IMG/VR virus record: IMGVR_UViG_3300022591_000005 | Location: 598 to 64,597 of that record | Strand: one strand, 5' to 3' | Length of the DNA stretch: 64,000 nucleotides | From: a virus | Lineage: Duplodnaviria; Caudoviricetes | Shown here: one piece after another, positions 46,400 to 55,460 of the stretch | Position numbering within the stretch: position 1 is the stretch's first letter | Layout of the letters: each line of letters opens with the position of its first letter | Notes under the pieces: generated by a model | What the model saw: only the letters and a program-made list of their open reading frames with translations | Told to the model about the DNA's origin: nothing | Databases searched by the model: none | Translations under genes and position numbers: made by a program

Positions 46400-46530
46400 T
46401 GGATAAGGTATGTATTGTATGTGGACATGTCCACGATGAAGAATTAGAAGGTAAATGGGACGAACTACCTGATACATTTACATGTCCAGAATGCGGAGTT
46501 GGTAAAGAAGACTACGTTGACATGGACTAA
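46399..46530 (+). CDS. Rubredoxin (not in ORF track)
   Basis: CIVCG...WDELPDTFTCPECGVGK. Confidence 0.85.
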   Translation: MDKVCIVCGHVHDEELEGKWDELPDTFTCPECGVGKEDYVDMD

Positions 46531-46913
46531 TGAAAGTAGTTGTCAACGGAACTTTTGACATCTTACACCCCGGGCATCTAGCGTTACTAAATTACGCTAA
46601 ATCGCTCGGGGATTTTCTTTTGGTTGCAATTGATACTGATGCTAGGGTAAGGCAATTAAAAGGTAATGATCGTCCAATTCACTCAGAAGAAGAGCGCAAA
46701 CTAATTTTAGAAAATATTAAGGCAGTTGACAAAGTTTGTTTGTTCAATTCAGACGAAGAGCTATTGCATTTGATATCGCAATGTGATATAATGGTTAAAG
46801 GATCTGACTATAAAGGTAAACCAGTAATTGGATCAGACGTTATTAAAATCATATACTATGAACGAACAGATCATTCAACAACAAAAACAATTCAACGTAT
46901 TACTAATAGGTGA
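46530..46913 (+). CDS. Cytidylyltransferase-family heptose-1-P adenylyltransferase (HldC/RfaE domain II)
   Basis: GTFDILHPGH, LKG..RP and VKGSDY motifs. Confidence 0.88.
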   Translation: MKVVVNGTFDILHPGHLALLNYAKSLGDFLLVAIDTDARVRQLKGNDRPIHSEEERKLILENIKAVDKVCLFNSDEELLHLISQCDIMVKGSDYKGKPVIGSDVIKIIYYERTDHSTTKTIQRITNR

Positions 46914-47622
46914 TACGTGTATTGATACATATATCTACGGAAAAGTAGATCGTATTAGCCCAGAAGCACCAGTTCCAATTTTTGTTCCTCACAGCCAAAT
47001 TGTTAAGGACGGCATGGCTGGAAATGTAGCAAAGAATTTAGAAGCACTTGGGTGTAATGTAAATTTTCTAAAAGGCAAAGTTAGTAACAAACAGCGTCTA
47101 ATTGACGAGCGCAGTAAGCAACAGCTACTTCGCATTGATCACGACGAAATTAGCGACCCTATTGATATAGTAAGCGAATTGCCTAATGTTTACGATGCTA
47201 TCGTTATTAGCGACTACAATAAAGGCACTGTAAGTTACGATTTAATCACGCACCTAGTAAAAACTACAAATGTGCCAATCTTTGTCGATACAAAGAAAAC
47301 AGACTTGTCTAAATTGGGTGGATGCTATATTAAAATAAATGCACTCGAATATAGTCGTGCTACCAATTTACCAATGCGCAAACATCTCATTGTCACACAC
47401 GGCGACAAAGGTGCAGAATGGAATGGTATAGTGTTTGCAGCAGAATCAGCAGGTGACGTCGTAGACGTTACAGGTGCAGGCGATACGTTCCTTGCTGCGT
47501 TAACTTATAAGTTTTTAGAAACAAATGATATGGCTGAAGCAATTAAGTTTGCTAATAAATCTGCAAGCATTACAGTACAACATGTGGGTGTATATGCGCC
47601 GAGATTAGAGGAAATTAAATGA
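46858..47622 (+). CDS. PfkB-family heptose-7-P kinase (HldA/RfaE domain I)
   Basis: RISPEAPVP, ISDYNKG and DVTGAGDT motifs. Confidence 0.88.
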   Translation: MNEQIIQQQKQFNVLLIGDTCIDTYIYGKVDRISPEAPVPIFVPHSQIVKDGMAGNVAKNLEALGCNVNFLKGKVSNKQRLIDERSKQQLLRIDHDEISDPIDIVSELPNVYDAIVISDYNKGTVSYDLITHLVKTTNVPIFVDTKKTDLSKLGGCYIKINALEYSRATNLPMRKHLIVTHGDKGAEWNGIVFAAESAGDVVDVTGAGDTFLAALTYKFLETNDMAEAIKFANKSASITVQHVGVYAPRLEEIK

Positions 47623-47978
47623 CACGACAAACAGGACATGTTAACAAAGGTTGGGGAAGTGAAGAAATTTGGGTAACTAACGACAAGTATTGTAGCAAGT
47701 TCATGCACTTCAACGAAGGCGCAAGATTTAGTATGCACTTTCATCGTGAAAAAGAAGAAACCTGGCGTGTAATGAGTGGCAAGTTTATGATCAAATATAT
47801 CCAAACTAGCAATGCTCAGATGTTTGAAATAATTGGCGAAGAAGGTACAATCTTTCATAATGCTCCTCTACAACCACATCAAGTCATTTGCTTAGAAGCA
47901 GGAACTATATTGGAAGTTAGTACACCCGATAGCGTGGAAGATAACTATAGAATCTTACCCGGAGATAGCCAACAGTGA
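47619..47978 (+). CDS. Cupin-fold sugar isomerase-like protein
   Basis: KGWGSE, SMHFH..KEET, H, EVSTP motifs. Confidence 0.75.
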   Translation: MTRQTGHVNKGWGSEEIWVTNDKYCSKFMHFNEGARFSMHFHREKEETWRVMSGKFMIKYIQTSNAQMFEIIGEEGTIFHNAPLQPHQVICLEAGTILEVSTPDSVEDNYRILPGDSQQ

Positions 47979-48739
47979 AAATTTTAGTTACAGGACATAA
48001 GGGATTTATCGGCGGCCACATAGTCAAAGCTCTTGAAGAGCATGACGTTAGAACCTTTGAATGGGGTGAAACTTGGCCAGATGTTAAAGGTTTGGATTGG
48101 GTTATACACATCGGTGCTGTCAGCAGCACTACTGAGCAAGACATAACAAAAATTATGAAACAAAACTTTGAATTTAGCATATGGCTGTTCGAAGAATGTA
48201 AGCATCATAAGGTTAATATGCAGTACTCTAGCTCTGCAAGTGTTTACGGACTAGTAAGTACATTTCGTGAAGATGCTCCTTTAGATCCTAGAAATTACTA
48301 TGCTAAAAGCAAAGCAGCTTTTGAAAATTATGCTAACAAGTACACCTTTGGAAACATTGTTCAAGGGTTTCGTTACTTTAATGTGTATGGTCCTGGAGAA
48401 GAACATAAAGGAACTCAAGCAAGCCCTTTTACTCAGTTTCGTAAACAAGCAGAGGAAACAGGTAGTATAAAAGTGTTTGAAGGCAGTAACAATTACTTAA
48501 GAGATTTTGTGCCTGTAGAAAAAGTTGTAGAAATCCACAAGAAATTTCTTGACATACCTGAATCAGGCATATATAATGTGGGAACAGGAAAGGCAATTAG
48601 CTTTTTAGACGTAGCAAAAATGTATTCGTCCAAAATAGTTGAAGTGCCTATGCCAGAGGTGTTAAAATCTAATTATCAAGAGTACACTTGTGCTGATATG
48701 TCGAAAACAAATCAAATGTTGCAAAAATACCACATTTGA
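47975..48739 (+). CDS. ADP-L-glycero-D-manno-heptose 6-epimerase-like SDR (HldD/RfaD)
   Basis: TGHKGFIG, SSTTE, YxxxK and RYFNVYGP.E.HKG motifs. Confidence 0.85.
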   Translation: MKILVTGHKGFIGGHIVKALEEHDVRTFEWGETWPDVKGLDWVIHIGAVSSTTEQDITKIMKQNFEFSIWLFEECKHHKVNMQYSSSASVYGLVSTFREDAPLDPRNYYAKSKAAFENYANKYTFGNIVQGFRYFNVYGPGEEHKGTQASPFTQFRKQAEETGSIKVFEGSNNYLRDFVPVEKVVEIHKKFLDIPESGIYNVGTGKAISFLDVAKMYSSKIVEVPMPEVLKSNYQEYTCADMSKTNQMLQKYHI

Positions 48740-48748
48740 TAGGGGTTA

Positions 48749-48855
48749 TTGACAAGAAGTATAAATACTCTTATAATAAAGGCAATTGCAAGAGATAAAT
48801 ATTTTTTGCAGTTAGCCAAAAGTGGTTGACAGTAGAGTCGAAAGACAATACAATA
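48749..48855 (+). promoter_or_regulatory. Tandem promoters of the tRNA island
   Basis: TTGACA..TATAAT with embedded TATAAATA; second TTGACA..TACAAT. Confidence 0.75.
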
Positions 48856-48915
48856 AGGACATGTTAGCAGCAATGGTGCAGTTAACATTTTTGAAAGAGA
48901 TTAAAGAGAAACAAA

Positions 48916-49071
48916 ATGCAATCAACATTTAGACAACAATTTAATACGATAGCCAAACAGGCAGTGCAGATGCACGGCTCATGGTTATGCGCGATTAATA
49001 GTCTATCTAATGATCGCACACCGGAGGGCTATATTAGCTCAGGGTTCTTGGAGGGAAGTGGTTACGCATAA
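48916..49071 (+). CDS. Putative attenuator leader peptide (51 aa)
   Basis: MQSTFRQQ...SGYA; 3' end overlaps the antiterminator arm. Confidence 0.65.
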   Translation: MQSTFRQQFNTIAKQAVQMHGSWLCAINSLSNDRTPEGYISSGFLEGSGYA

Positions 49072-49128
49072 AACGTAAAACTACTTAAACTTTAGGAACC
49101 CTAGGATTAAAAACCCTGGGGTTTTTTG
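49041..49128 (+). terminator. Mutually exclusive antiterminator/terminator (attenuator)
   Basis: Terminator aaccctagg/cctggggtt+T-run; 49041-49053 pairs with 49090-49102. Confidence 0.75.
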
Positions 49129-49144
49129 TTTTGTGGAAGGAAAA

Positions 49145-49309
49145 ATGGATACGATAGATTATACAAAATTAAACGAACGTATTGTTGAGCAGGCTTATGA
49201 AGCTGTTCTTACAAAAGAGCAACTTCAAAAACTTATTCAAAATAAGTTGGAACGTGCTAAACAATACCGCGAAGCGTTAGTGAACTCACCGACGTTTAGC
49301 GTAAATTAG
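49145..49309 (+). CDS. Small hypothetical protein (not in ORF track)
   Basis: AAGGA SD; 54 aa; TAG stop. Confidence 0.55.
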   Translation: MDTIDYTKLNERIVEQAYEAVLTKEQLQKLIQNKLERAKQYREALVNSPTFSVN

Positions 49310-49532
49310 TACAAAGTGTGAAGATACAGGAAACGAGGTCCTGGCAGCGCACTCTAAACATGCTGCAAACGGGCGGCCTAGTCGATGGATAAAGCGAGAG
49401 ATCGTGCTCCTAATGTGGAGTGAAAAACACTAGCGTATAAAGTAAGTTGGGAAATCGTATAGCGTTCTCACTTTGAATGAGTCTAACCAGCTTATTTTAT
49501 ACGACACATTCGAAAGAGTGTGTGATAATTAT

Positions 49533-49619
49533 GGATGCTCGGTCGGAGTTGGAGAGCCACGGCGAGCTGTAACCTCGTTTCCTTCGGGATAGTAAGTTCG
49601 AATCTTACAGCATCCACCA
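49533..49619 (+). tRNA. tRNA-Tyr(GTA)
   Basis: Cloverleaf, loop CTGTAAC, long variable arm, CCA. Confidence 0.85.
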
Positions 49620-49623
49620 ATAT

Positions 49624-49698
49624 AGCCTATTAGCTCAGTGGTAGAGCACCGTCTTGATAAGGCGTAGGTCCTTGGATCGTTCCCAAGATAGGCTACCA
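49624..49698 (+). tRNA. tRNA-Ile(GAT)
   Basis: Loop TTGATAA, CCA. Confidence 0.88.
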
Positions 49699-49702
49699 AG
49701 TT

Positions 49703-49767
49703 AAGGATGAGTTCTGCAAATTTCAAAGCTAAACTTTTTGGTTGTCTAGCGACAAAAATCATCCTGT
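49703..49767 (+). ncRNA. CAGCAA-module RNA E1
   Basis: aggatga..ctgcaa...tcatcctg. Confidence 0.6.
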
Positions 49768-49776
49768 TTTTTCTAT

Positions 49777-49855
49777 TCCGCGAAATCCAAGCAAGGTGCA
49801 GGGACCTGACTGTTAATCAGTGGTTAGGTGAGTTCGATCCTCACACGCGGAGCCA
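49777..49855 (+). tRNA. tRNA-Asn(GTT)
   Basis: Loop CTGTTAA, CCA. Confidence 0.8.
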
Positions 49856-49864
49856 GTTATCTGT

Positions 49865-49938
49865 TGGCGCATTATGTAATGGTAGCATATCAGACTTTGA
49901 CTCTGAGAGTGTAGGTTCGATCCCTACTGCGCCTGCCA
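49865..49938 (+). tRNA. tRNA-Gln(TTG)
   Basis: Loop CTTTGAC, CCA. Confidence 0.85.
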
Positions 49939-49943
49939 AGTTT

Positions 49944-50000
49944 TAGGATTCATTCAGCAATTAAAAATTTTATATTGAAAATAAAAAAAGCGAATCCTGT
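49944..50000 (+). ncRNA. CAGCAA-module RNA E2 (Ser-UGA-like anticodon hairpin)
   Basis: taggattc..cagcaa..ttttat-attgaaa-ataaaa..gaatcctg. Confidence 0.7.
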
Positions 50001-50008
50001 TTTAATAT

Positions 50009-50083
50009 ATCGCGTTGGACTTCTGGGTAGGTCCTTGGCCCTTCAAGCCAAAGAGACGGGTTCGATTCCCGTACGCGATACCA
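50009..50083 (+). tRNA. tRNA-Glu(TTC), C33 variant
   Basis: Loop CCTTCAA, CCA. Confidence 0.8.
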
Positions 50084-50089
50084 ATCTAT

Positions 50090-50165
50090 GGTGTTAGTAG
50101 TGTAGTGGTCTGCACCTCGCTCTGTGAAAGCGATAGTATGGGATCGTTCCCCATCTAGCACCCCA
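50090..50165 (+). tRNA. tRNA-His(GTG)
   Basis: G-1, loop CTGTGAA, C73-CCA. Confidence 0.85.
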
Positions 50166-50167
50166 AT

Positions 50168-50243
50168 GCAACTTTAGCTGATGTGGTCATAGCGGCGGTT
50201 TGAAGCACCGTTGAAGTAGGTTCGATTCCTACAGGTTGCACCA
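50168..50243 (+). tRNA. tRNA-Phe(GAA)
   Basis: Loop TTGAAGC, CCA. Confidence 0.82.
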
Positions 50244-50249
50244 AGTTTT

Positions 50250-50324
50250 GCCTCCGTAGTATAATGGATAATATACTGGTCTACGAAGCCGGGGATTGTG
50301 GTTCGATTCCATACGGAGGCGCCA
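50250..50324 (+). tRNA. tRNA-Arg(ACG)
   Basis: Loop CTACGAA, CCA. Confidence 0.88.
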
Positions 50325-50331
50325 AGTTAAT

Positions 50332-50407
50332 GGGGCATGGGCATGGGCACCCGGATTTGCTTTGCAAGCAGATAGCCTGATCGGTTCGAGTCCGATATGT
50401 TCCACCA
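50332..50407 (+). tRNA. tRNA-Ala(TGC), atypical D-arm
   Basis: G3:U70, loop TTTGCAA, CCA. Confidence 0.75.
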
Positions 50408-50412
50408 ATTAT

Positions 50413-50486
50413 GTATCCCTAGTGTAATGGCAGCATTACAGTCTCCAAAACTGTCGGTCGGGGTTCGAGTCCCTGGGGGTACGCCA
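50413..50486 (+). tRNA. tRNA-Trp(CCA)
   Basis: Loop CTCCAAA, CCA. Confidence 0.88.
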
Positions 50487-50491
50487 ACAAT

Positions 50492-50580
50492 GGAAGGTTA
50501 ACTGGACTGGGTCCAGCTCTGTCTTGAAAACAGAAGGTGTGCGAAAGCGCATAGAGTTCGATTCTACTATCCTTCCTCCA
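50492..50580 (+). tRNA. tRNA-Ser(TGA)
   Basis: Loop CTTGAAA, long variable arm, CCA. Confidence 0.8.
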
Positions 50581-50585
50581 TATTA

Positions 50586-50661
50586 TAGGCTTGACATGAA
50601 ATGTTTTTCATATCGTTATGACATGACGACTTAGGCAGTTAGATTCTGCACTAGCCCACCA
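50586..50661 (+). pseudogene. Degenerate tRNA-like element (GAC loop)
   Basis: Cloverleaf-like, tcgtt-atgacat-gacga, ends ACCA, non-canonical loops. Confidence 0.4.
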
Positions 50662-50666
50662 ATTAT

Positions 50667-50744
50667 CTCTGTGTAATGTCAATCTGGTAGACGGCCTGAT
50701 CTGGAGTCAGGAGGCTGTAGGTTCGAATCCTACCATGGAGACCA
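50667..50744 (+). tRNA. tRNA-Pro(TGG), C33 variant
   Basis: Loop TCTGGAG, CCA. Confidence 0.8.
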
Positions 50745-50749
50745 AATTT

Positions 50750-50848
50750 GCCGCTATAGCTTAATGGTAAAGACGAGAGCTTATACCTCTCCAAAGCAGT
50801 GGCCAGATAAGCCACCGTGTGCAGGTTCGAGTCCTGCTAGCGGCACCA
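50750..50848 (+). tRNA. tRNA-Ile(TAT) with large extra arm
   Basis: gagag-CTTATAC-ctctc; ~29-nt variable region; CCA. Confidence 0.7.
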
Positions 50849-50852
50849 AGTT

Positions 50853-50910
50853 TAGGATGCGTCCAGCAACTTACAAAATTCAACTTTTAATTGAAAAATA
50901 AGCATCCTGT
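50853..50910 (+). ncRNA. CAGCAA-module RNA E3 (Lys-UUU anticodon hairpin)
   Basis: taggatgc..cagcaa..ttcaa-CTTTTAA-ttgaa..gcatcctg. Confidence 0.75.
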
Positions 50911-51021
50911 TTTTAAAATGTTCAAAAGGAGAACGACAATGAAACGTGCTAAACGTTAGTGTCGCTCTAGATCCCGTATTGGTCTAGGGTTGGCACATTA
51001 AATCAAATTTAATACAACTAA

Positions 51022-51097
51022 CCCTATCTAGCGTTAACGGTAGCGCACTTGACTCTTAATCAATGAGGTGTCGGTTCGAATCCGACGGTAGGGACCA
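51022..51097 (+). tRNA. tRNA-Lys(CTT)
   Basis: Loop CTCTTAA, CCA. Confidence 0.88.
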
Positions 51098-51101
51098 ATA
51101 C

Positions 51102-51179
51102 GGGATCGTAGTGTCAACGGTTTAGCACAGCGGACTTTTAATCCGCCAGGTGAGGGTTCGAATCCCTCCGGTCCTACCA
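51102..51179 (+). tRNA. tRNA-Lys(TTT)
   Basis: Loop CTTTTAA, CCA. Confidence 0.9.
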
Positions 51180-51686
51180 TTAAATGTAATTGAAATTAAT
51201 TACTGCTCTATATGCGTTGTCGGTACATGAAGTGCCAGTATGCAAGTCTGTTGTATCAAAAATAGCAAGTCTGTTTTCAACACTGTTAATTCGTTCACCG
51301 TCTTTAAACAAGGTGTATCCATTATTAGTGTTAAGATAAAATACAGCAGTTTTACATACTTGTTCTAATTTGCCTGGCAAGTCAGTATGAAACCCATGTT
51401 CAACGATTTCATTTGTGCATGGAACAATATTTGCTTTAATCTTTATTATTGCCTCCGGCTGCAGGATGTGCAATATAGGAGAAAGCAAATCTAAATACTG
51501 ACTTTCTACAAATGGACTCATGTAAAAAGAATGAACAAATTGATTATTATATTTTGGATCGCATGATAATTTTTCAGATGCAACAATGTCATGCATCATC
51601 CAAGGAAAATTAGGTCCAAGGATAGTATTTTTAATCATATCTAAGTCTTCTTGTTGAAGACAGTTGTCTGTTATTGTAAGTTTCAT
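51180..51686 (-). CDS. 2OG-Fe(II) oxygenase-like protein
   Basis: HTD..TAVFYLNTNNGYT..H..R.VINFNY. Confidence 0.8.
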   Translation of the reverse strand: MKLTITDNCLQQEDLDMIKNTILGPNFPWMMHDIVASEKLSCDPKYNNQFVHSFYMSPFVESQYLDLLSPILHILQPEAIIKIKANIVPCTNEIVEHGFHTDLPGKLEQVCKTAVFYLNTNNGYTLFKDGERINSVENRLAIFDTTDLHTGTSCTDNAYRAVINFNYI

Positions 51687-51713
51687 AGTACAGTATATAT
51701 CGTAAAAAATTAT

Positions 51714-51788
51714 GGTAACGTAGCATAATGGTTGTGCACCTCCTTCATACGGAGCCAGGTGTGAGTTCGAATCTCACCGTTACCACCA
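51714..51788 (+). tRNA. tRNA with CAT anticodon (Met or Ile2)
   Basis: Loop TTCATAC, CCA. Confidence 0.82.
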
Positions 51789-51794
51789 AGTTAT

Positions 51795-51886
51795 GGCGGA
51801 TACTTTCCACATGGTTGTGGAGAGCATTCAGATCGGAATGTTTACAGCAAACTTTTTAACAGGTTCGACTCCTGTATCCGCCGCCT
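51795..51886 (+). ncRNA. tRNA-like RNA E4 with CAGCAA module replacing the anticodon arm
   Basis: ggcggat/atccgcc acceptor, T-arm, gcattc/gaatgt-ttacagcaa. Confidence 0.6.
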
Positions 51887-51894
51887 AACAAATT

Positions 51895-51968
51895 GCTCTA
51901 TTAGTATAATGGCAATACTCCGGTTTTGTAGTCCGGCAATCGTGGTTCGATTCCTCGATGGAGCACCA
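51895..51968 (+). tRNA. tRNA-Thr(TGT)
   Basis: Loop TTTGTAG, CCA. Confidence 0.8.
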
Positions 51969-52079
51969 AGAGCCTCACCCTTGCATATGGTGTATAATAG
52001 GATAAGTTGTATGCAGCAAACAGACCCCCGCTTTTCTAGATTGTGCGGTGAACAATCTAGAACAAATAAGTAAGTTTAT

Positions 52080-52153
52080 GCGGGTATGATGTAATGGTAA
52101 CCTGAAACCTTGCCAAGGTTTATTCGCGAGTTCGATTCTCGCTACCCGCTCCA
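52080..52153 (+). tRNA. tRNA-Gly(GCC)
   Basis: Loop TTGCCAA, U73-CCA. Confidence 0.9.
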
Positions 52154-52203
52154 TACATCCTTCCAGAGTTGTTCGTATAGCGTCCCCTGGAAGTTCTCAG
52201 TTT

Positions 52204-52310
52204 TAGGATCAGTTCAGCAATCTTAAATCCAAGCAGAATGTCGTGGGTTCGAATCCCACCTTAATTGTAGCTCAGTTGGTAGAGCGTCCGCCATAAAAAG
52301 ATGATCCTGT
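52204..52310 (+). ncRNA. CAGCAA-module RNA E5 enclosing a circularly permuted tRNA-Val-like domain (YrlA-like)
   Basis: T-arm precedes D-arm; closed by taggatc/gatcctg. Confidence 0.78.
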
Positions 52311-52323
52311 TAGTTTGACCATT

Positions 52324-52443
52324 TAGGTTCTTTTCAGCAAATTTAAATAATCTTTCTGCAAAAAAGAGAGGCTGGGTTCGAATCCCAGGCACAGCTTGGT
52401 CAGTTGTGTTAGTGTAGTGGTAGCACGAAAAAAGAGAACCTGT
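52324..52443 (+). ncRNA. CAGCAA-module RNA E6 enclosing a circularly permuted tRNA (GCA anticodon)
   Basis: Order: anticodon arm, T-arm, capped acceptor stem, D-arm; closed by taggttc/gaacctg. Confidence 0.8.
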
Positions 52444-52461
52444 TATAATAAGGAGACTACT

Positions 52462-52629
52462 GTGAAAGCAATTACATTTAAAAACAGATTTAATGGCGAA
52501 AAGGTAGTGTGCAAGGATGTTAAAGAAGTCCAAGTAATTGACGGTGTCGAGTACTTGCTTGTTAGCAAAACTGTACAAGATAGAAAATTCCTAATGCGTA
52601 AAGATGCATTAGAAAAAGTCAAAGGATAA
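52462..52629 (+). CDS. Hypothetical protein
   Basis: AAGGAG SD + GTG. Confidence 0.6.
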   Translation: MKAITFKNRFNGEKVVCKDVKEVQVIDGVEYLLVSKTVQDRKFLMRKDALEKVKG

Positions 52630-52633
52630 AATC

Positions 52634-53125
52634 ATGCAATGGATTCAAAACGTAGCAATGGTGGATGTAGCAAAAGGGCACCACTTTGATGCTGGTGTGA
52701 ATTCTATGCTTATCCAAATTGTAGACCCAGGAATGGAATTTCCTATTCCATTTAATAAGTTTGCAGAAGTGCATCAATTTCAATTCTTAGATTTGGAAAA
52801 AGATGACAAGGCTCCAGAAGAGTTAAAAATTCAGGACGAACAAGCAGAGCAACTTGTGGCTCTATTACAACATGCACTTGACAAACATATGCAAGTTGTA
52901 GTACACTGTGTTGCTGGAGTTTGTAGAAGTGGTGCAGTTTGTGAAGTTGGAGTAATGATGGGATTTAACGACACTGAAGTGTTTCGCAGCCCAAATTTAC
53001 TAGTCAAACACAAGATGATGAAAGTCTTAGGTTGGACATACGATGAAAACGAACCACACACTATAAACGGTATAACATTAGACTCGGGATTTATTGTCCC
53101 AAAGAATTACGAAGGTGATATATGA
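52634..53125 (+). CDS. Cys-dependent (tyrosine/dual-specificity-type) phosphatase
   Basis: HCVAGVCRS (CX5R). Confidence 0.85.
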   Translation: MQWIQNVAMVDVAKGHHFDAGVNSMLIQIVDPGMEFPIPFNKFAEVHQFQFLDLEKDDKAPEELKIQDEQAEQLVALLQHALDKHMQVVVHCVAGVCRSGAVCEVGVMMGFNDTEVFRSPNLLVKHKMMKVLGWTYDENEPHTINGITLDSGFIVPKNYEGDI

Positions 53126-53500: not shown

Positions 53501-54049
53501 ATGAGAACATGGGTTACAAGTGACTTGCATTTTGGTCACAAGAATATCATGAAGTTCTGCCCTGTGACCCGTGCTCGTTTCCGCGATGACGTAGCATACA
53601 TGAATAACGCAATGGTTGAAGAATGGAACAACAAAGTTGCTCCGGAAGATACTGTTTACATCTTAGGTGATGTAGCGTTTATGTCGGGCAGTGATGCAGG
53701 ACGGATGATGCAACGTTTAAATGGTACAAAGATTTTGGTTGAAGGCAACCATGACCGTAAGACATTGATGGATGCAACATTCCGCAGTGCGTTTGCAGAA
53801 GTACACAAGTACTTGGATATTACATATGATGGTCACAAGATTGTCATGTTTCACTATCCAATTGCTGAATGGGATCAAATGCACAGAGGAGCATTGCACT
53901 TGTACGGTCACTTGCATGGCGGTACAAGCGGATTAGAAAAGTATCGTGCGTTTGATGTAGGAATGGACTCAACAGGTGAAATTTGTGTATCAATGGAATA
54001 CGTAATCAATCGTATTAAGGATAACGAAATTAAAGGACATCACGTATAA
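53501..54049 (+). CDS. Calcineurin-like metallophosphoesterase
   Basis: SDLHFGH, LGD, GNHD, HYP and GHLH motifs. Confidence 0.9.
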   Translation: MRTWVTSDLHFGHKNIMKFCPVTRARFRDDVAYMNNAMVEEWNNKVAPEDTVYILGDVAFMSGSDAGRMMQRLNGTKILVEGNHDRKTLMDATFRSAFAEVHKYLDITYDGHKIVMFHYPIAEWDQMHRGALHLYGHLHGGTSGLEKYRAFDVGMDSTGEICVSMEYVINRIKDNEIKGHHV

Positions 54050-54555
54050 TGGATACAATCGAAAAGGCTAGAGTTTTTGCAACTGCGGCACATGCAGCGG
54101 CGGCTCAACTTCGTAAGTATACGAATGAGCCTTATATTGTCCATCCTGCTGAAGTTGCTAGTATTATTGACAATCTTGAAGGTGCTTCTGTAGCTATGGT
54201 TGCAGCAGCATGGTTACATGATGTAGTCGAAGATACAGGAGTTACAATTGAAATCATCAAATCGGAGTTCGGTGAAGAAGTCGCAGACTTGGTGGGATGG
54301 CTTACCGACGTTAGCCGTCCGGAACAAGGTAACAGAGCAACACGCAAAGCAATTGACAGAGCGCACACTGCAATGGCACCCGCAGAAGCGCAAACAATCA
54401 AGTTGGCAGATTTAATTTCTAACTGCACAAGTATTGTTGAGCATGACGCAACATTTGCAAAAACATACTTAGAAGAAAAGAGATTACTGCTTGAAGTTTT
54501 AACAAAAGGCGATCGTTCTCTCTGGGAACACGCTAACAAGATTGTGAGCAAATAA
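54049..54555 (+). CDS. HD-domain hydrolase, small alarmone hydrolase/Mesh1-like
   Basis: AH..Q.RK...PYIVHP, LHDVVEDT and IKLAD..SN motifs. Confidence 0.85.
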   Translation: MDTIEKARVFATAAHAAAAQLRKYTNEPYIVHPAEVASIIDNLEGASVAMVAAAWLHDVVEDTGVTIEIIKSEFGEEVADLVGWLTDVSRPEQGNRATRKAIDRAHTAMAPAEAQTIKLADLISNCTSIVEHDATFAKTYLEEKRLLLEVLTKGDRSLWEHANKIVSK

Positions 54556-55460
54556 TGTTTAAAGACAAGTTGAAGGAGTACGTAGAGACTAGCGGCTTGG
54601 TTAACATGAAAGAAGCTGGCGACGGCATCTACGTACTCAAGTACAAGAAAAAAGTGTTCTACGATAACTTGTGGAACGAATACATTGCTGAATGCCGTGG
54701 ATCTGTTGTAGATAAGGATTTCAACCTAGTTGCATACCCATTTACAAAGATCTACAACTATGGAATTGAAAAGGAAGCACCTGTCCTATCTGATGATACT
54801 AAGGTAACTGCTTTTCGTAAAGTAAACGGTTTCATGGTAGCTTGTACTTGGTACAACGATGACGTTTTAGTGTCTACTACAGGTAGTACTGACAGCCCAT
54901 ACGTTGATATGGCCAAGGAAATGATGATGGAACACATGTGCTGGGCAGACTGGCAAATGGCATTGTGCAACACTGAGACCCAAGGCATGACATTTATGTT
55001 TGAGTGTGTGCATCCAAGTGATCCACATATCATCCCTGAAGAAGAAGGTATGTACCTCCTAGGATATCGTGAAAACGAATTTGGCAGCAATGTGGGTCAC
55101 GACCCATTCGTGTTGCAAGACTTAGGTCGCATGTTTAATTGTTTCGTGCCAGAAAGTGTAACAACTAACATGGCTCGACTAAAGCAATTAGCTAAGGAAT
55201 GCAAGCACGAAGGTTATGTATTCTATACAGATGATGGTGTAAGTGCTAAGATCAAGTCGCCATACTACTTAACTTCAAAGTGGGTTGCTCGCAATCCACG
55301 TACAGATAAGTTAGTAGACTTGAACAAGGACATTAAGCACAACATTGACGAAGAGTATTACGGATTGATTGATCATATCCGTGCTAACATTGTTGAGTAT
55401 ACTGCTATGGACGAGCAAGCTCGTTTATCGTGGGTGCGTAACTATATGGAGGCGGCCTAA
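54555..55460 (+). CDS. RNA ligase (T4 Rnl1-like)
   Basis: ECRG, PFTKIYN, KVNG (motif I), FE, EGYV and KIKS motifs. Confidence 0.82.
   Translation: MFKDKLKEYVETSGLVNMKEAGDGIYVLKYKKKVFYDNLWNEYIAECRGSVVDKDFNLVAYPFTKIYNYGIEKEAPVLSDDTKVTAFRKVNGFMVACTWYNDDVLVSTTGSTDSPYVDMAKEMMMEHMCWADWQMALCNTETQGMTFMFECVHPSDPHIIPEEEGMYLLGYRENEFGSNVGHDPFVLQDLGRMFNCFVPESVTTNMARLKQLAKECKHEGYVFYTDDGVSAKIKSPYYLTSKWVARNPRTDKLVDLNKDIKHNIDEEYYGLIDHIRANIVEYTAMDEQARLSWVRNYMEAA

Follow-up and report, generated by a model that had tools for sequence, protein, structure and literature searches.

A candidate ribosome-mediated attenuator with an amino-acid-complete leader peptide at the head of a phage tRNA array

Results and Discussion

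The leader locus

The window analysed here, 64,000 nucleotides (nt) of a virus of the Caudoviricetes (IMG/VR record IMGVR_UViG_3300022591_000005, positions 598 to 64,597), contains a tRNA island headed by a short leader element with the layout of a transcription attenuator. Its parent, of which the window covers nearly all, is a linear viral contig of 64.6 kb; completeness was judged to be about 17%, which points to a fragment of a giant phage. The DNA runs in which the stretch occurs came from pond and freshwater metagenomes. On the plus strand, promoters are followed by an open reading frame (ORF) of 51 codons, a long hairpin enclosing its stop codon, an intrinsic terminator, a second ORF of 54 codons, a second structured RNA and the first block of tRNA genes (Table 1).

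Table 1. Features of the leader element and its surroundings (coordinates of the window; SD, Shine-Dalgarno sequence)
Feature	Position	Strand	Remarks
Upstream promoter, sigma-70-type	48549..48577	+	TTGACA-17-TATAAT; 12/12 consensus; inside epimerase gene end
Second tandem promoter	48749..48777	+	12/12 consensus
Leader promoter	48826..48854	+	TTGACA-17-TACAAT; 11/12 consensus
5'-terminal hairpin of leader transcript	48862..48887	+	centroid fold, alignment
Weak SD-like AAAGAG	48903..48908	+	8 nt before ATG
Candidate sensor ORF	48916..49071	+	51 codons + TAA; ATG start; all 20 amino acids by codon 39
Small hairpin in ORF, GUGC-AGAU-GCAC	48964..48975	+	covaries in relatives: GGAC..GUCC, GGCU..AGCC
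Hairpin in ORF, GCGAU...AUCGC	48991..49017	+	flanked by conserved UUGGU (Trp codon region)
Small hairpin, GGGCUA-UAU-UAGCUC	49026..49040	+	directly before antiterminator; GGGG..CCCC in relatives
Putative antiterminator, long hairpin	49041..49102	+	stop TAA 49069-49071 in apical loop
Intrinsic terminator	49099..49127	+	CCCUAGG (49099-49105)/CCUGGGG (49115-49121); 9-nt loop; U6
Conserved 54-codon ORF	49145..49309	+	good SD GGAAGGA; starts 17 nt after terminator; would be first read-through product
Second conserved structured RNA, ~210 nt	49318..49530	+	between terminator region and first tRNA
First same-strand tRNA block	49533..52153	+	15 ARAGORN tRNAs + extra Rfam tRNA matches; presumed regulated output
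Dual-specificity phosphatase-like protein	52634-53125		inside tRNA island
Calcineurin-like phosphoesterase	53501-54049		inside tRNA island
HD_4 domain protein, RelA/SpoT hydrolase type	54049-54555		inside tRNA island
T4 Rnl1-type RNA ligase	54555-55460		inside tRNA island

The 51-residue peptide that the initial annotation had given for 48916-49071 was read back identically, with all 20 amino acids present by residue 39, and the codon diversity described there amounts to 36 distinct codons in 51. Draws from the codon usage of the window yielded a mean of 30.4 distinct codons (standard deviation 2.4; P(>=36) = 0.016). All 20 amino acids occur in 3.2% of the 51-residue segments of the window's own long ORFs (385/12,092) and in 0.5% of the 39-residue segments of its proteins, the chance being 1.3-3.2% for lengths of 44-51 residues. 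Two of the 85 six-frame ATG ORFs of 40-60 codons in the window hold all 20, the leader ORF being one of them. For a single ORF of this kind chance is not negligible, and the case rests on the relatives.

Relatives of the unit and comparative signs of translation

The unit was reached by three independent routes: back-translated peptide words led to 11 viral contigs, the downstream 54-codon ORF as a query to 36, and a 17-base motif to 48 stretches. Three chance matches to the 17-nt motif that lacked the unit (L085, L092, L066), three loci cut by contig ends (L051, L067, L083) and exact duplicates were dropped from the first set, and an nhmmer profile was built from the first 36 units. By nhmmer, the unit lies directly upstream of the 54-codon ORF in 31 of 36 loci, is partial in three and is absent from two. 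In the second set, whose ORFs were chosen from an ATG, L035 and L048 gave no nhmmer hit and L047 had no ORF of the required geometry. The window itself contains one unit only, and nhmmer found no second copy before the second tRNA block. Throughout the relatives' alignment the order is the same: a promoter TTGAC(A)-17-TAnAAT, an ORF of 36-53 codons, a long hairpin and a terminator. A TTGAC -35 element with a TAnAAT-like -10 element stands at the place of the leader promoter in all 36 first-set units. As the initial annotation had expected of relatives, the ORF, the geometry of hairpin and terminator, and the diversity of amino acids and codons are all kept.

No stop interrupts the reading frame in any of the 61 distinct coding sequences, whose lengths vary (36-53 codons), whereas the other two frames average 2.8 and 4.8 stops, and all 36 units of the first set start with ATG. 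A frame test based on anchor distances was discounted since its regular expression took an out-of-frame TGG in 4 of 59 cases; the open frame was used instead. Comparative signs that the leader ORF is translated in the relatives are thus strong, although the SD-like sequence preceding it in the window is as weak as had been noted initially.

No DNA-level relative of 48700-49400 was found in a collection of cultured phages (blastn, distant mode), and a tblastn search of cultured phages with the leader peptide returned chance matches only (E >= 2). A scan of 47500-53000 against Rfam (cmscan, E <= 10) gave over the leader element only SpF11_sRNA at 23 bits (gathering score 54; E = 4), and no T-box match. 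In protein collections, the element is conserved over at least 160 clusters at 50% identity.

Selection for amino-acid completeness

Among the first 36 distinct peptides, 30 contain all 20 amino acids and six contain 19. The set reached only via the downstream ORF, which was not ascertained on the peptide, is complete in 25 of 26 cases, including a very divergent 43-residue peptide without a recognisable central motif. Combined, the 61 distinct peptides from viral contigs (36-53 residues) comprise 54 with 20 and seven with 19 amino acids. In a collection of 5.8 billion proteins, 58 of 77 clusters at 90% identity hold 20 and the other 19 hold 19. A profile search of 1.84 billion representatives yielded the 160 clusters at 50% identity; 150 of these were listed, 18 of which were set aside as their start could not be placed. 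Of the 132 listed representatives that were used (median length 47 residues), 94 hold 20 amino acids, 35 hold 19, two hold 18 and one holds 17. The amino acid most often missing here is Cys (19 cases), followed by Val (7) and Phe (5). The original claim of a peptide with all 20 residues therefore stands for most members of the family but not as a strict rule: according to the set, 11-29% of members are incomplete, nearly always by a single amino acid and mostly by Cys.

Shuffling residues within alignment columns left on average 12.6 of 61 peptides complete (maximum 22 in 2000 shuffles), and shuffling within clusters of at least 70% identity left 37.6 (maximum 44 in 1000). Since the observed number of 54 exceeds both maxima, inheritance from a lucky ancestor does not explain completeness. 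The rare residues behave accordingly. Cys occurs exactly once in 55 of 61 peptides, distributed over 18 alignment columns, and His exactly once in 52 of 61, over 16 columns; the sole Cys of the window's peptide is the product of a three-base insertion absent from the relatives. Single-copy residues that wander between columns argue for selection on presence rather than position. Taken together, the leader ORF is very probably under selection to contain all, or nearly all, amino acids.

Codon diversity follows a similar pattern. The units use 27-40 distinct codons within their 36-53 codons, compared with null means of 28.7-30.4 for 46 and 51 codons; the range is 32-40 when the shortest, 36-codon member and one 48-codon member (29 distinct codons) are left aside. 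In the first 36 units both codon boxes are used for Arg in 33, for Ser in 36 and for Leu in 29, and ATA is used along with ATY for Ile in 32. Runs of regulatory codons are absent from the leader; instead, about one codon per amino acid is kept.

Two competing RNA structures

The stretch 49030-49135 folds with a minimum free energy (MFE) of -34.9 kcal/mol (z = -3.9), and none of 200 shuffled sequences folded as well. The long hairpin described in the initial annotation was recovered with its outer stem (49041-49053/49090-49102) and with the stop codon in the apical loop, but the inner coordinates were off by one: the inner stem is formed by 49056-49062/49080-49086 plus 49063-49066/49074-49077. 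The terminator, a G+C-rich stem of 7 bp in the window, is present in 58 of 58 distinct 3' regions. Sequestration of its 5' arm by the hairpin, as proposed, would involve four bases (49099-49102) that are common to the terminator and the 3' arm of the hairpin. When the alternative structures were folded, both formed and were nearly isoenergetic.

From a plain MAFFT alignment, RNAalifold retrieved two elements only, the terminator and a stem of UUGGU with ACCAG. Because the length of the hairpin is too variable to align, each sequence was folded singly, and covariation of the hairpin was tested at its base, the part that can be aligned. When the transcript was folded as far as the terminator loop, the long hairpin sequestered 3-7 of the 6-8 bases of the terminator 5' arm in every one of the 58 distinct 3' regions. 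Over these regions the terminator state is favoured by a mean of only 2.3 kcal/mol (range -6.1 to +2.4), and full-length minimum-energy folds show the hairpin in some members and the terminator in others. With energies so nearly equal, a hairpin that has already formed would be a real kinetic block.

Spacing is constrained as well. The 5' arm of the hairpin starts 11-34 nt (mostly 21-28) before the stop codon, within the last 4-11 codons; the terminator arm starts 20-34 nt after the stop codon and the U tract ends 48-63 nt after it. At the seven pairs forming the base of the antiterminator, 96.4% of the alignment cells can pair and five of the seven pairs change on both sides, while controls slid along the sequence reached 24-70%. 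For the terminator, 98.6-99.1% of cells pair, with compensatory changes. The base at 49102 belongs to both helices. Together with its two partners it forms the triple G-C-G in 21 of the 58 regions, A-U-G in 18, A-U-A in 10 and G-U-G in 4, and both pairings are open to it in 55 of 58. Covariation of a single base with either of two partners is the pattern expected of a two-state switch.

Position of the ribosome relative to the proposed switch

A translating ribosome unwinds mRNA to about 11-13 nt downstream of the first base of the P-site codon. Given this distance, a stall on any codon up to about codon 38 should leave the hairpin arm, which begins at 49041, free to pair, while a ribosome that has reached the final codons or the stop codon would cover the 5' arm and still be clear of the terminator (from 49099). 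In 50 of the 61 units, at least 19 amino acids are encoded at least 9 nt upstream of the hairpin arm; with a margin of 15 nt the count is 43 of 61. The sensor codons thus lie where stalling would preserve the antiterminator, which supports a switch in which smooth translation leads to termination and delayed or absent translation to read-through.

Genes and RNAs downstream of the terminator

The leader unit is closely associated with tRNA genes. Where the downstream flank reaches 1 kb or more (53 distinct units), a same-strand tRNA follows within 196-1046 nt in 52 units and an opposite-strand tRNA in none. In 42 of 52 relatives no promoter with at least 11/12 consensus matches lies between the unit and the first tRNA. 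In the window, where the first tRNA is tRNA-Tyr at 49533, the promoter before it (49501-49529) is weak, with a match of 9/12. The position expected of an element that gates the tRNA island, as initially proposed, is hence kept, in that the unit heads a same-strand array in nearly every relative; the gating would not be exclusive.

The 54-codon ORF is 55-87% identical in 36 viral contigs, which are a subset of the relatives, and has no Pfam or PHROG family. One predicted metagenome protein of 127 residues (P0139) reads from the leader ORF through the terminator into the 54-codon ORF. The second structured RNA was found by motif search in 37 of 61 downstream flanks. Its hairpins covary (CAGGA..UCCUG versus GUGGU..ACCAC; GCAGC..GCUGC versus GCCGC..GCGGC), it contains an invariant AAACGGGCGGCC..GGAUG, and a closing hairpin ACACAUUC-GAAA-GAGUGUGU stands just before tRNA-Tyr. 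No Rfam match to it was found at E <= 10.

The four protein genes between 52634 and 55460, inside the island, together look like an RNA-repair module, possibly also one for alarmone hydrolysis. T4 Rnl1 and Pnkp are the textbook repair system for cleaved tRNA-Lys. The genes for an Rnl1-type ligase and a phosphoesterase provide a context that fits a response to tRNA loss, without proving one.

Proposed mechanism

We consider it probable that the unit is a ribosome-mediated attenuator heading the phage tRNA array, with a leader peptide that serves as a sampler holding about one of each amino acid. In our model, strong sigma-70-type promoters start a transcript that would be translated almost at once. 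If about the first 38 codons are decoded without delay, the ribosome would trail RNA polymerase into the last 7-11 codons, which form the 5' arm of the hairpin. Unwinding of this arm would free the 3' arm, whose first bases could then pair with the G-rich arm of the terminator, and transcription would stop at 49122-49127. Should decoding be held up at any sensor codon, or should no ribosome load at all, the long hairpin would form first and hold 3-7 bases of the terminator 5' arm. Polymerase would then read through into the 54-codon ORF, the second structured RNA and the tRNA array with its RNA-repair genes. The net effect would be that of a homeostat, phage tRNA output rising when the decoding capacity for any amino acid falls. 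The earlier proposal of a general sensor rather than a single-amino-acid attenuator is supported by these data, and those of its predictions that could be computed came out as expected.

A broader version of this model, which we put forward as a tentative possibility, takes the ORF to be a dipstick for the whole pool of charged tRNAs, those of the host and those of the phage, read through a single codon per amino acid in turn, by which the phage would set transcription of its own near-complete tRNA set and of the tRNA-repair genes; the device would act both as a homeostat and as an alarm that responds, for any isoacceptor, to tRNA-cleaving defences of the host or to decay of host tRNAs. Host tRNA damage as the natural trigger is a guess, backed only by the genes for the Rnl1-type ligase and the phosphoesterase, and we regard it as doubtful.

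Several observations weigh against the attenuator model. The two helices overlap by no more than the four shared bases in the window. At 50% identity, 38 of the 132 representatives are short of between one and three amino acids, Cys being the usual one. Ten of 52 relatives carry a near-consensus promoter that overlaps a conserved hairpin, typically some 40 nt ahead of the first tRNA; promoters at this place mean that the array is not fed by read-through alone. In the window, the 54-codon ORF and the RNA of about 210 nt separate the terminator from the first tRNA, which speaks against exclusive gating. Under simple wobble rules the island tRNAs read 56 of 61 sense codons, 98% of the leader codons and 97.9% of the codons of long ORFs; as nearly all codons are read, the leader codons do not tell sensing of host tRNAs from sensing of phage tRNAs. 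Some contigs from RNA libraries bridge the terminator. Synonymous sites, too, are conserved over much of the ORF, and covarying hairpins form inside it, so that the leader RNA may have a further role, although part of the synonymous-site invariance arises by construction from the 17-nt motif search. Finally, it is deduced from sequence alone that the ORF is translated, that the terminator works, which way the switch turns and what triggers it in nature.

Alternative explanations

Translation of the ORF might be sensed with a different output or logic, which we consider unlikely. Stalling could expose the C-rich stretch AUCGCACACC to Rho or a nuclease and thereby lower expression, or the switch could mainly control the 54-codon ORF and the second RNA. 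The stretch GAUCGCACACCRGAGGG is indeed C-rich and very conserved, and a Rho-linked upstream ORF (uORF) that senses many ribosome inhibitors is reported for Escherichia coli (PMC12121999). It also fits this explanation that the first element after the terminator is the 54-codon ORF or, failing that, the second RNA, and not a tRNA, and that some relatives have their own promoter before the first tRNA. However, the conserved, covarying overlap of terminator and antiterminator points to control by intrinsic termination, a strong promoter in the interval from the terminator to the first tRNA is missing in most relatives (42 of 52), and in many that lack the 54-codon ORF the unit is retained immediately upstream of the second RNA and the tRNAs.

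Quite unlikely, in our view, is that the product is the terminated leader itself, about 270 nt long, as a structured and possibly dual-function small RNA (compare rnTrpL/peTrpL) that acts in trans or binds a protein, with control of the tRNAs secondary or absent. From its likely start at 48861 to 49129, the leader folds far better than shuffled sequences (z = -5.6). The covarying internal hairpins and conserved synonymous sites would suit such an RNA, stable small RNAs typically have a 5'-terminal hairpin and a strong terminator, as the leader does, and trans-acting RNAs derived from attenuators have been reported (PMC6614838). Contigs over the leader were present in four RNA libraries, and their summed depth is highest at 48938-49141 and then falls; as these contigs give neither 3' ends nor strand, sum depth over relatives and may include DNA, they were counted only as presence in RNA libraries, and the peak favours a small RNA weakly. 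On the other hand, a small RNA leaves unexplained why selection should favour one of each amino acid, why stop codon, hairpin and terminator keep a fixed spacing, and why the alternative pairings via a shared base are nearly isoenergetic; its best Rfam hit is the SpF11 match mentioned above. A small RNA would in any case be compatible with attenuation rather than exclude it.

Very unlikely is an ordinary gene for a small phage protein, with a strong promoter and a terminator of its own, whose peptide is the functional product and whose hairpin only stabilizes the mRNA at its 3' end: every relative keeps the ORF with its ATG and frame, positions W23, D33, R34 and P36 are near-invariant and gene callers give a hypothetical protein in many metagenomes, but the conserved peptide stretches coincide with RNA stems whose covariation changes residues non-conservatively (VQMH, GHMS, GFIA, GVMP), the C-terminal third keeps the hairpin and not the residues, the rare residues wander over 16-18 columns at one copy, and a base common to two covarying helices is left unexplained. 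The leader peptide matched no family in Pfam or PHROG, and it does not resemble a folded protein; an AlphaFold2 model (26-sequence alignment), itself weak evidence, reached a pLDDT (predicted local distance difference test) of 57.6 and a pTM (predicted template modelling score) of 0.12 and had no secondary structure.

Relation to known attenuators

In the enterobacterial leaders trpL, hisL, leuL, thrL and pheL, runs of codons specify the amino acid or amino acids of the operon, and a 1:2 hairpin makes termination the outcome when the leader is not translated. The phage element resembles these leaders in that a short ORF is followed by a terminator whose 5' arm can pair upstream, with the position of the ribosome deciding between the structures. 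It differs in having no codon runs, in using each amino acid about once, in its predicted default of read-through when untranslated and in its tRNA output; no competitor of the 1:2 type for the 5' arm of the antiterminator was seen. T-box leaders bind one specific uncharged tRNA directly, and translation is not needed. They share with the phage element a leader that reports tRNA charging and a terminator/antiterminator switch, whereas in the phage element the ribosome would do the sensing, and for all amino acids.

Closest in logic is the uORF attenuator of whiB7/wblC, in which a short uORF precedes an antiterminator/terminator pair and stalling leads to read-through. In whiB7 of mycobacteria and other actinobacteria, the response to starvation follows the composition of the uORF, which sets the amino acids that are sensed; the uORF of Mycobacterium smegmatis holds 19 of 20, and the hits comprised genes or tRNA/synthetase pairs for 18 of the 20 (PMC10274678). 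Once the Trp or His codons are removed, the response to the amino acid in question is lost, and loss of the start codon raises read-through or expression (PMC10274678). The latter default is the one that we infer for the phage element. The whiB7 uORF is enriched in Ala and the amino acids it holds vary by species, while the phage leader keeps completeness in 71-89% of members. The output of whiB7 is a transcription factor, that of the phage element a tRNA array with RNA-repair genes. The likeness is one of logic only: Pfam and Rfam gave nothing that would relate the sequences, and some phage members are leaderless. The surroundings, with tRNAs and a family-less 54-codon ORF downstream, sigma-70-type promoters and a phage contig, are not those of a whiB7 homologue. 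The element is homologous to neither the trp/his leaders nor the whiB7 uORF. A further general sensor of translation stress is toiL, the uORF of E. coli topAI-yjhQ, which reportedly responds to several classes of ribosome-targeting antibiotics through stalling at specific codons and regulates a toxin-antitoxin transcript; it is not reported there to be tied to tRNA genes or to amino-acid completeness (PMC12121999).

A full-text literature search, whose coverage leaves out many subscription papers, returned no account of a leader-peptide attenuator before phage tRNA genes or of a leader selected for all amino acids. Phage tRNA arrays are usually discussed as helpers in codon usage or as replacements for lost or cleaved host tRNAs, and to our knowledge essentially nothing has been established about the control of their expression. 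If the broader version of our model is correct, the element would be the first leader peptide to control tRNA genes, and also the first leader to be selected for completeness in amino acids. A peptide whose only evident constraint is to contain every amino acid would show that selection can act on completeness itself, that ribosome-mediated attenuation can be a general gauge of decoding capacity instead of one for a single amino acid, and that giant phages regulate their translation toolkit by feedback. The model predicts that removing the codons of one amino acid blinds the switch to that amino acid alone, as described for whiB7. At about 300 nt and self-contained, the element could then be a compact and portable sensor of translation stress for synthetic biology.

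Further features of the leader and the island

Three tandem sigma-70-type promoters lie within 300 nt (48549-48854), and all of them would feed the leader. Directly upstream, at 46530-48739, is a set of genes for heptose-nucleotide sugars, comprising a cytidylyltransferase-like gene, a kinase-like gene, a cupin gene and the epimerase gene. The epimerase is 41-46% identical to epimerases of marine cyanophages. Locus L001, reached via this neighbouring epimerase, has a different gene order and lacks the attenuator unit.

Eight of the 36 first-set units (L055, L058, L061, L065, L073, L086, L091 and L096) are leaderless or nearly so; the distance from the -35 element to the ATG is 38-44 nt and the 5'-terminal hairpin is missing. 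The remaining units carry the 5' hairpin and an A-rich, weak SD.

Within the ORF, the hairpin at 48964-48975 may be a pause or structural element; the 4-bp register given in Table 1 fits only 78.6% of cells, which leaves the exact pairs unsettled. The conserved UUGGU(U) at the Trp codon pairs with AGCCAA upstream in the MFE fold, or with ACCGG/ACCAG downstream according to RNAalifold. As the stretches involved (48944-48949, 48981-48986 and 49020-49024) are all near-invariant, covariation cannot decide between these pairings. The alternative pairing could be an extra switch or a polymerase pause hairpin within the ORF.

In the whole window ARAGORN called 34 tRNA genes, a permuted tmRNA and a tRNA(CUA) named tRNA-Pyl. 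Two Rfam matches in the first block were not called by ARAGORN. One, at 50492-50576, is tRNA-Sec-like and scores 47.8 bits against a gathering score of 47. The other is a 96-nt tRNA match at 50750-50845 (57 bits), which may represent an intron-bearing or long-arm tRNA comparable to the tRNA-Ile(TAT) of 90-95 nt that ARAGORN calls in relatives.

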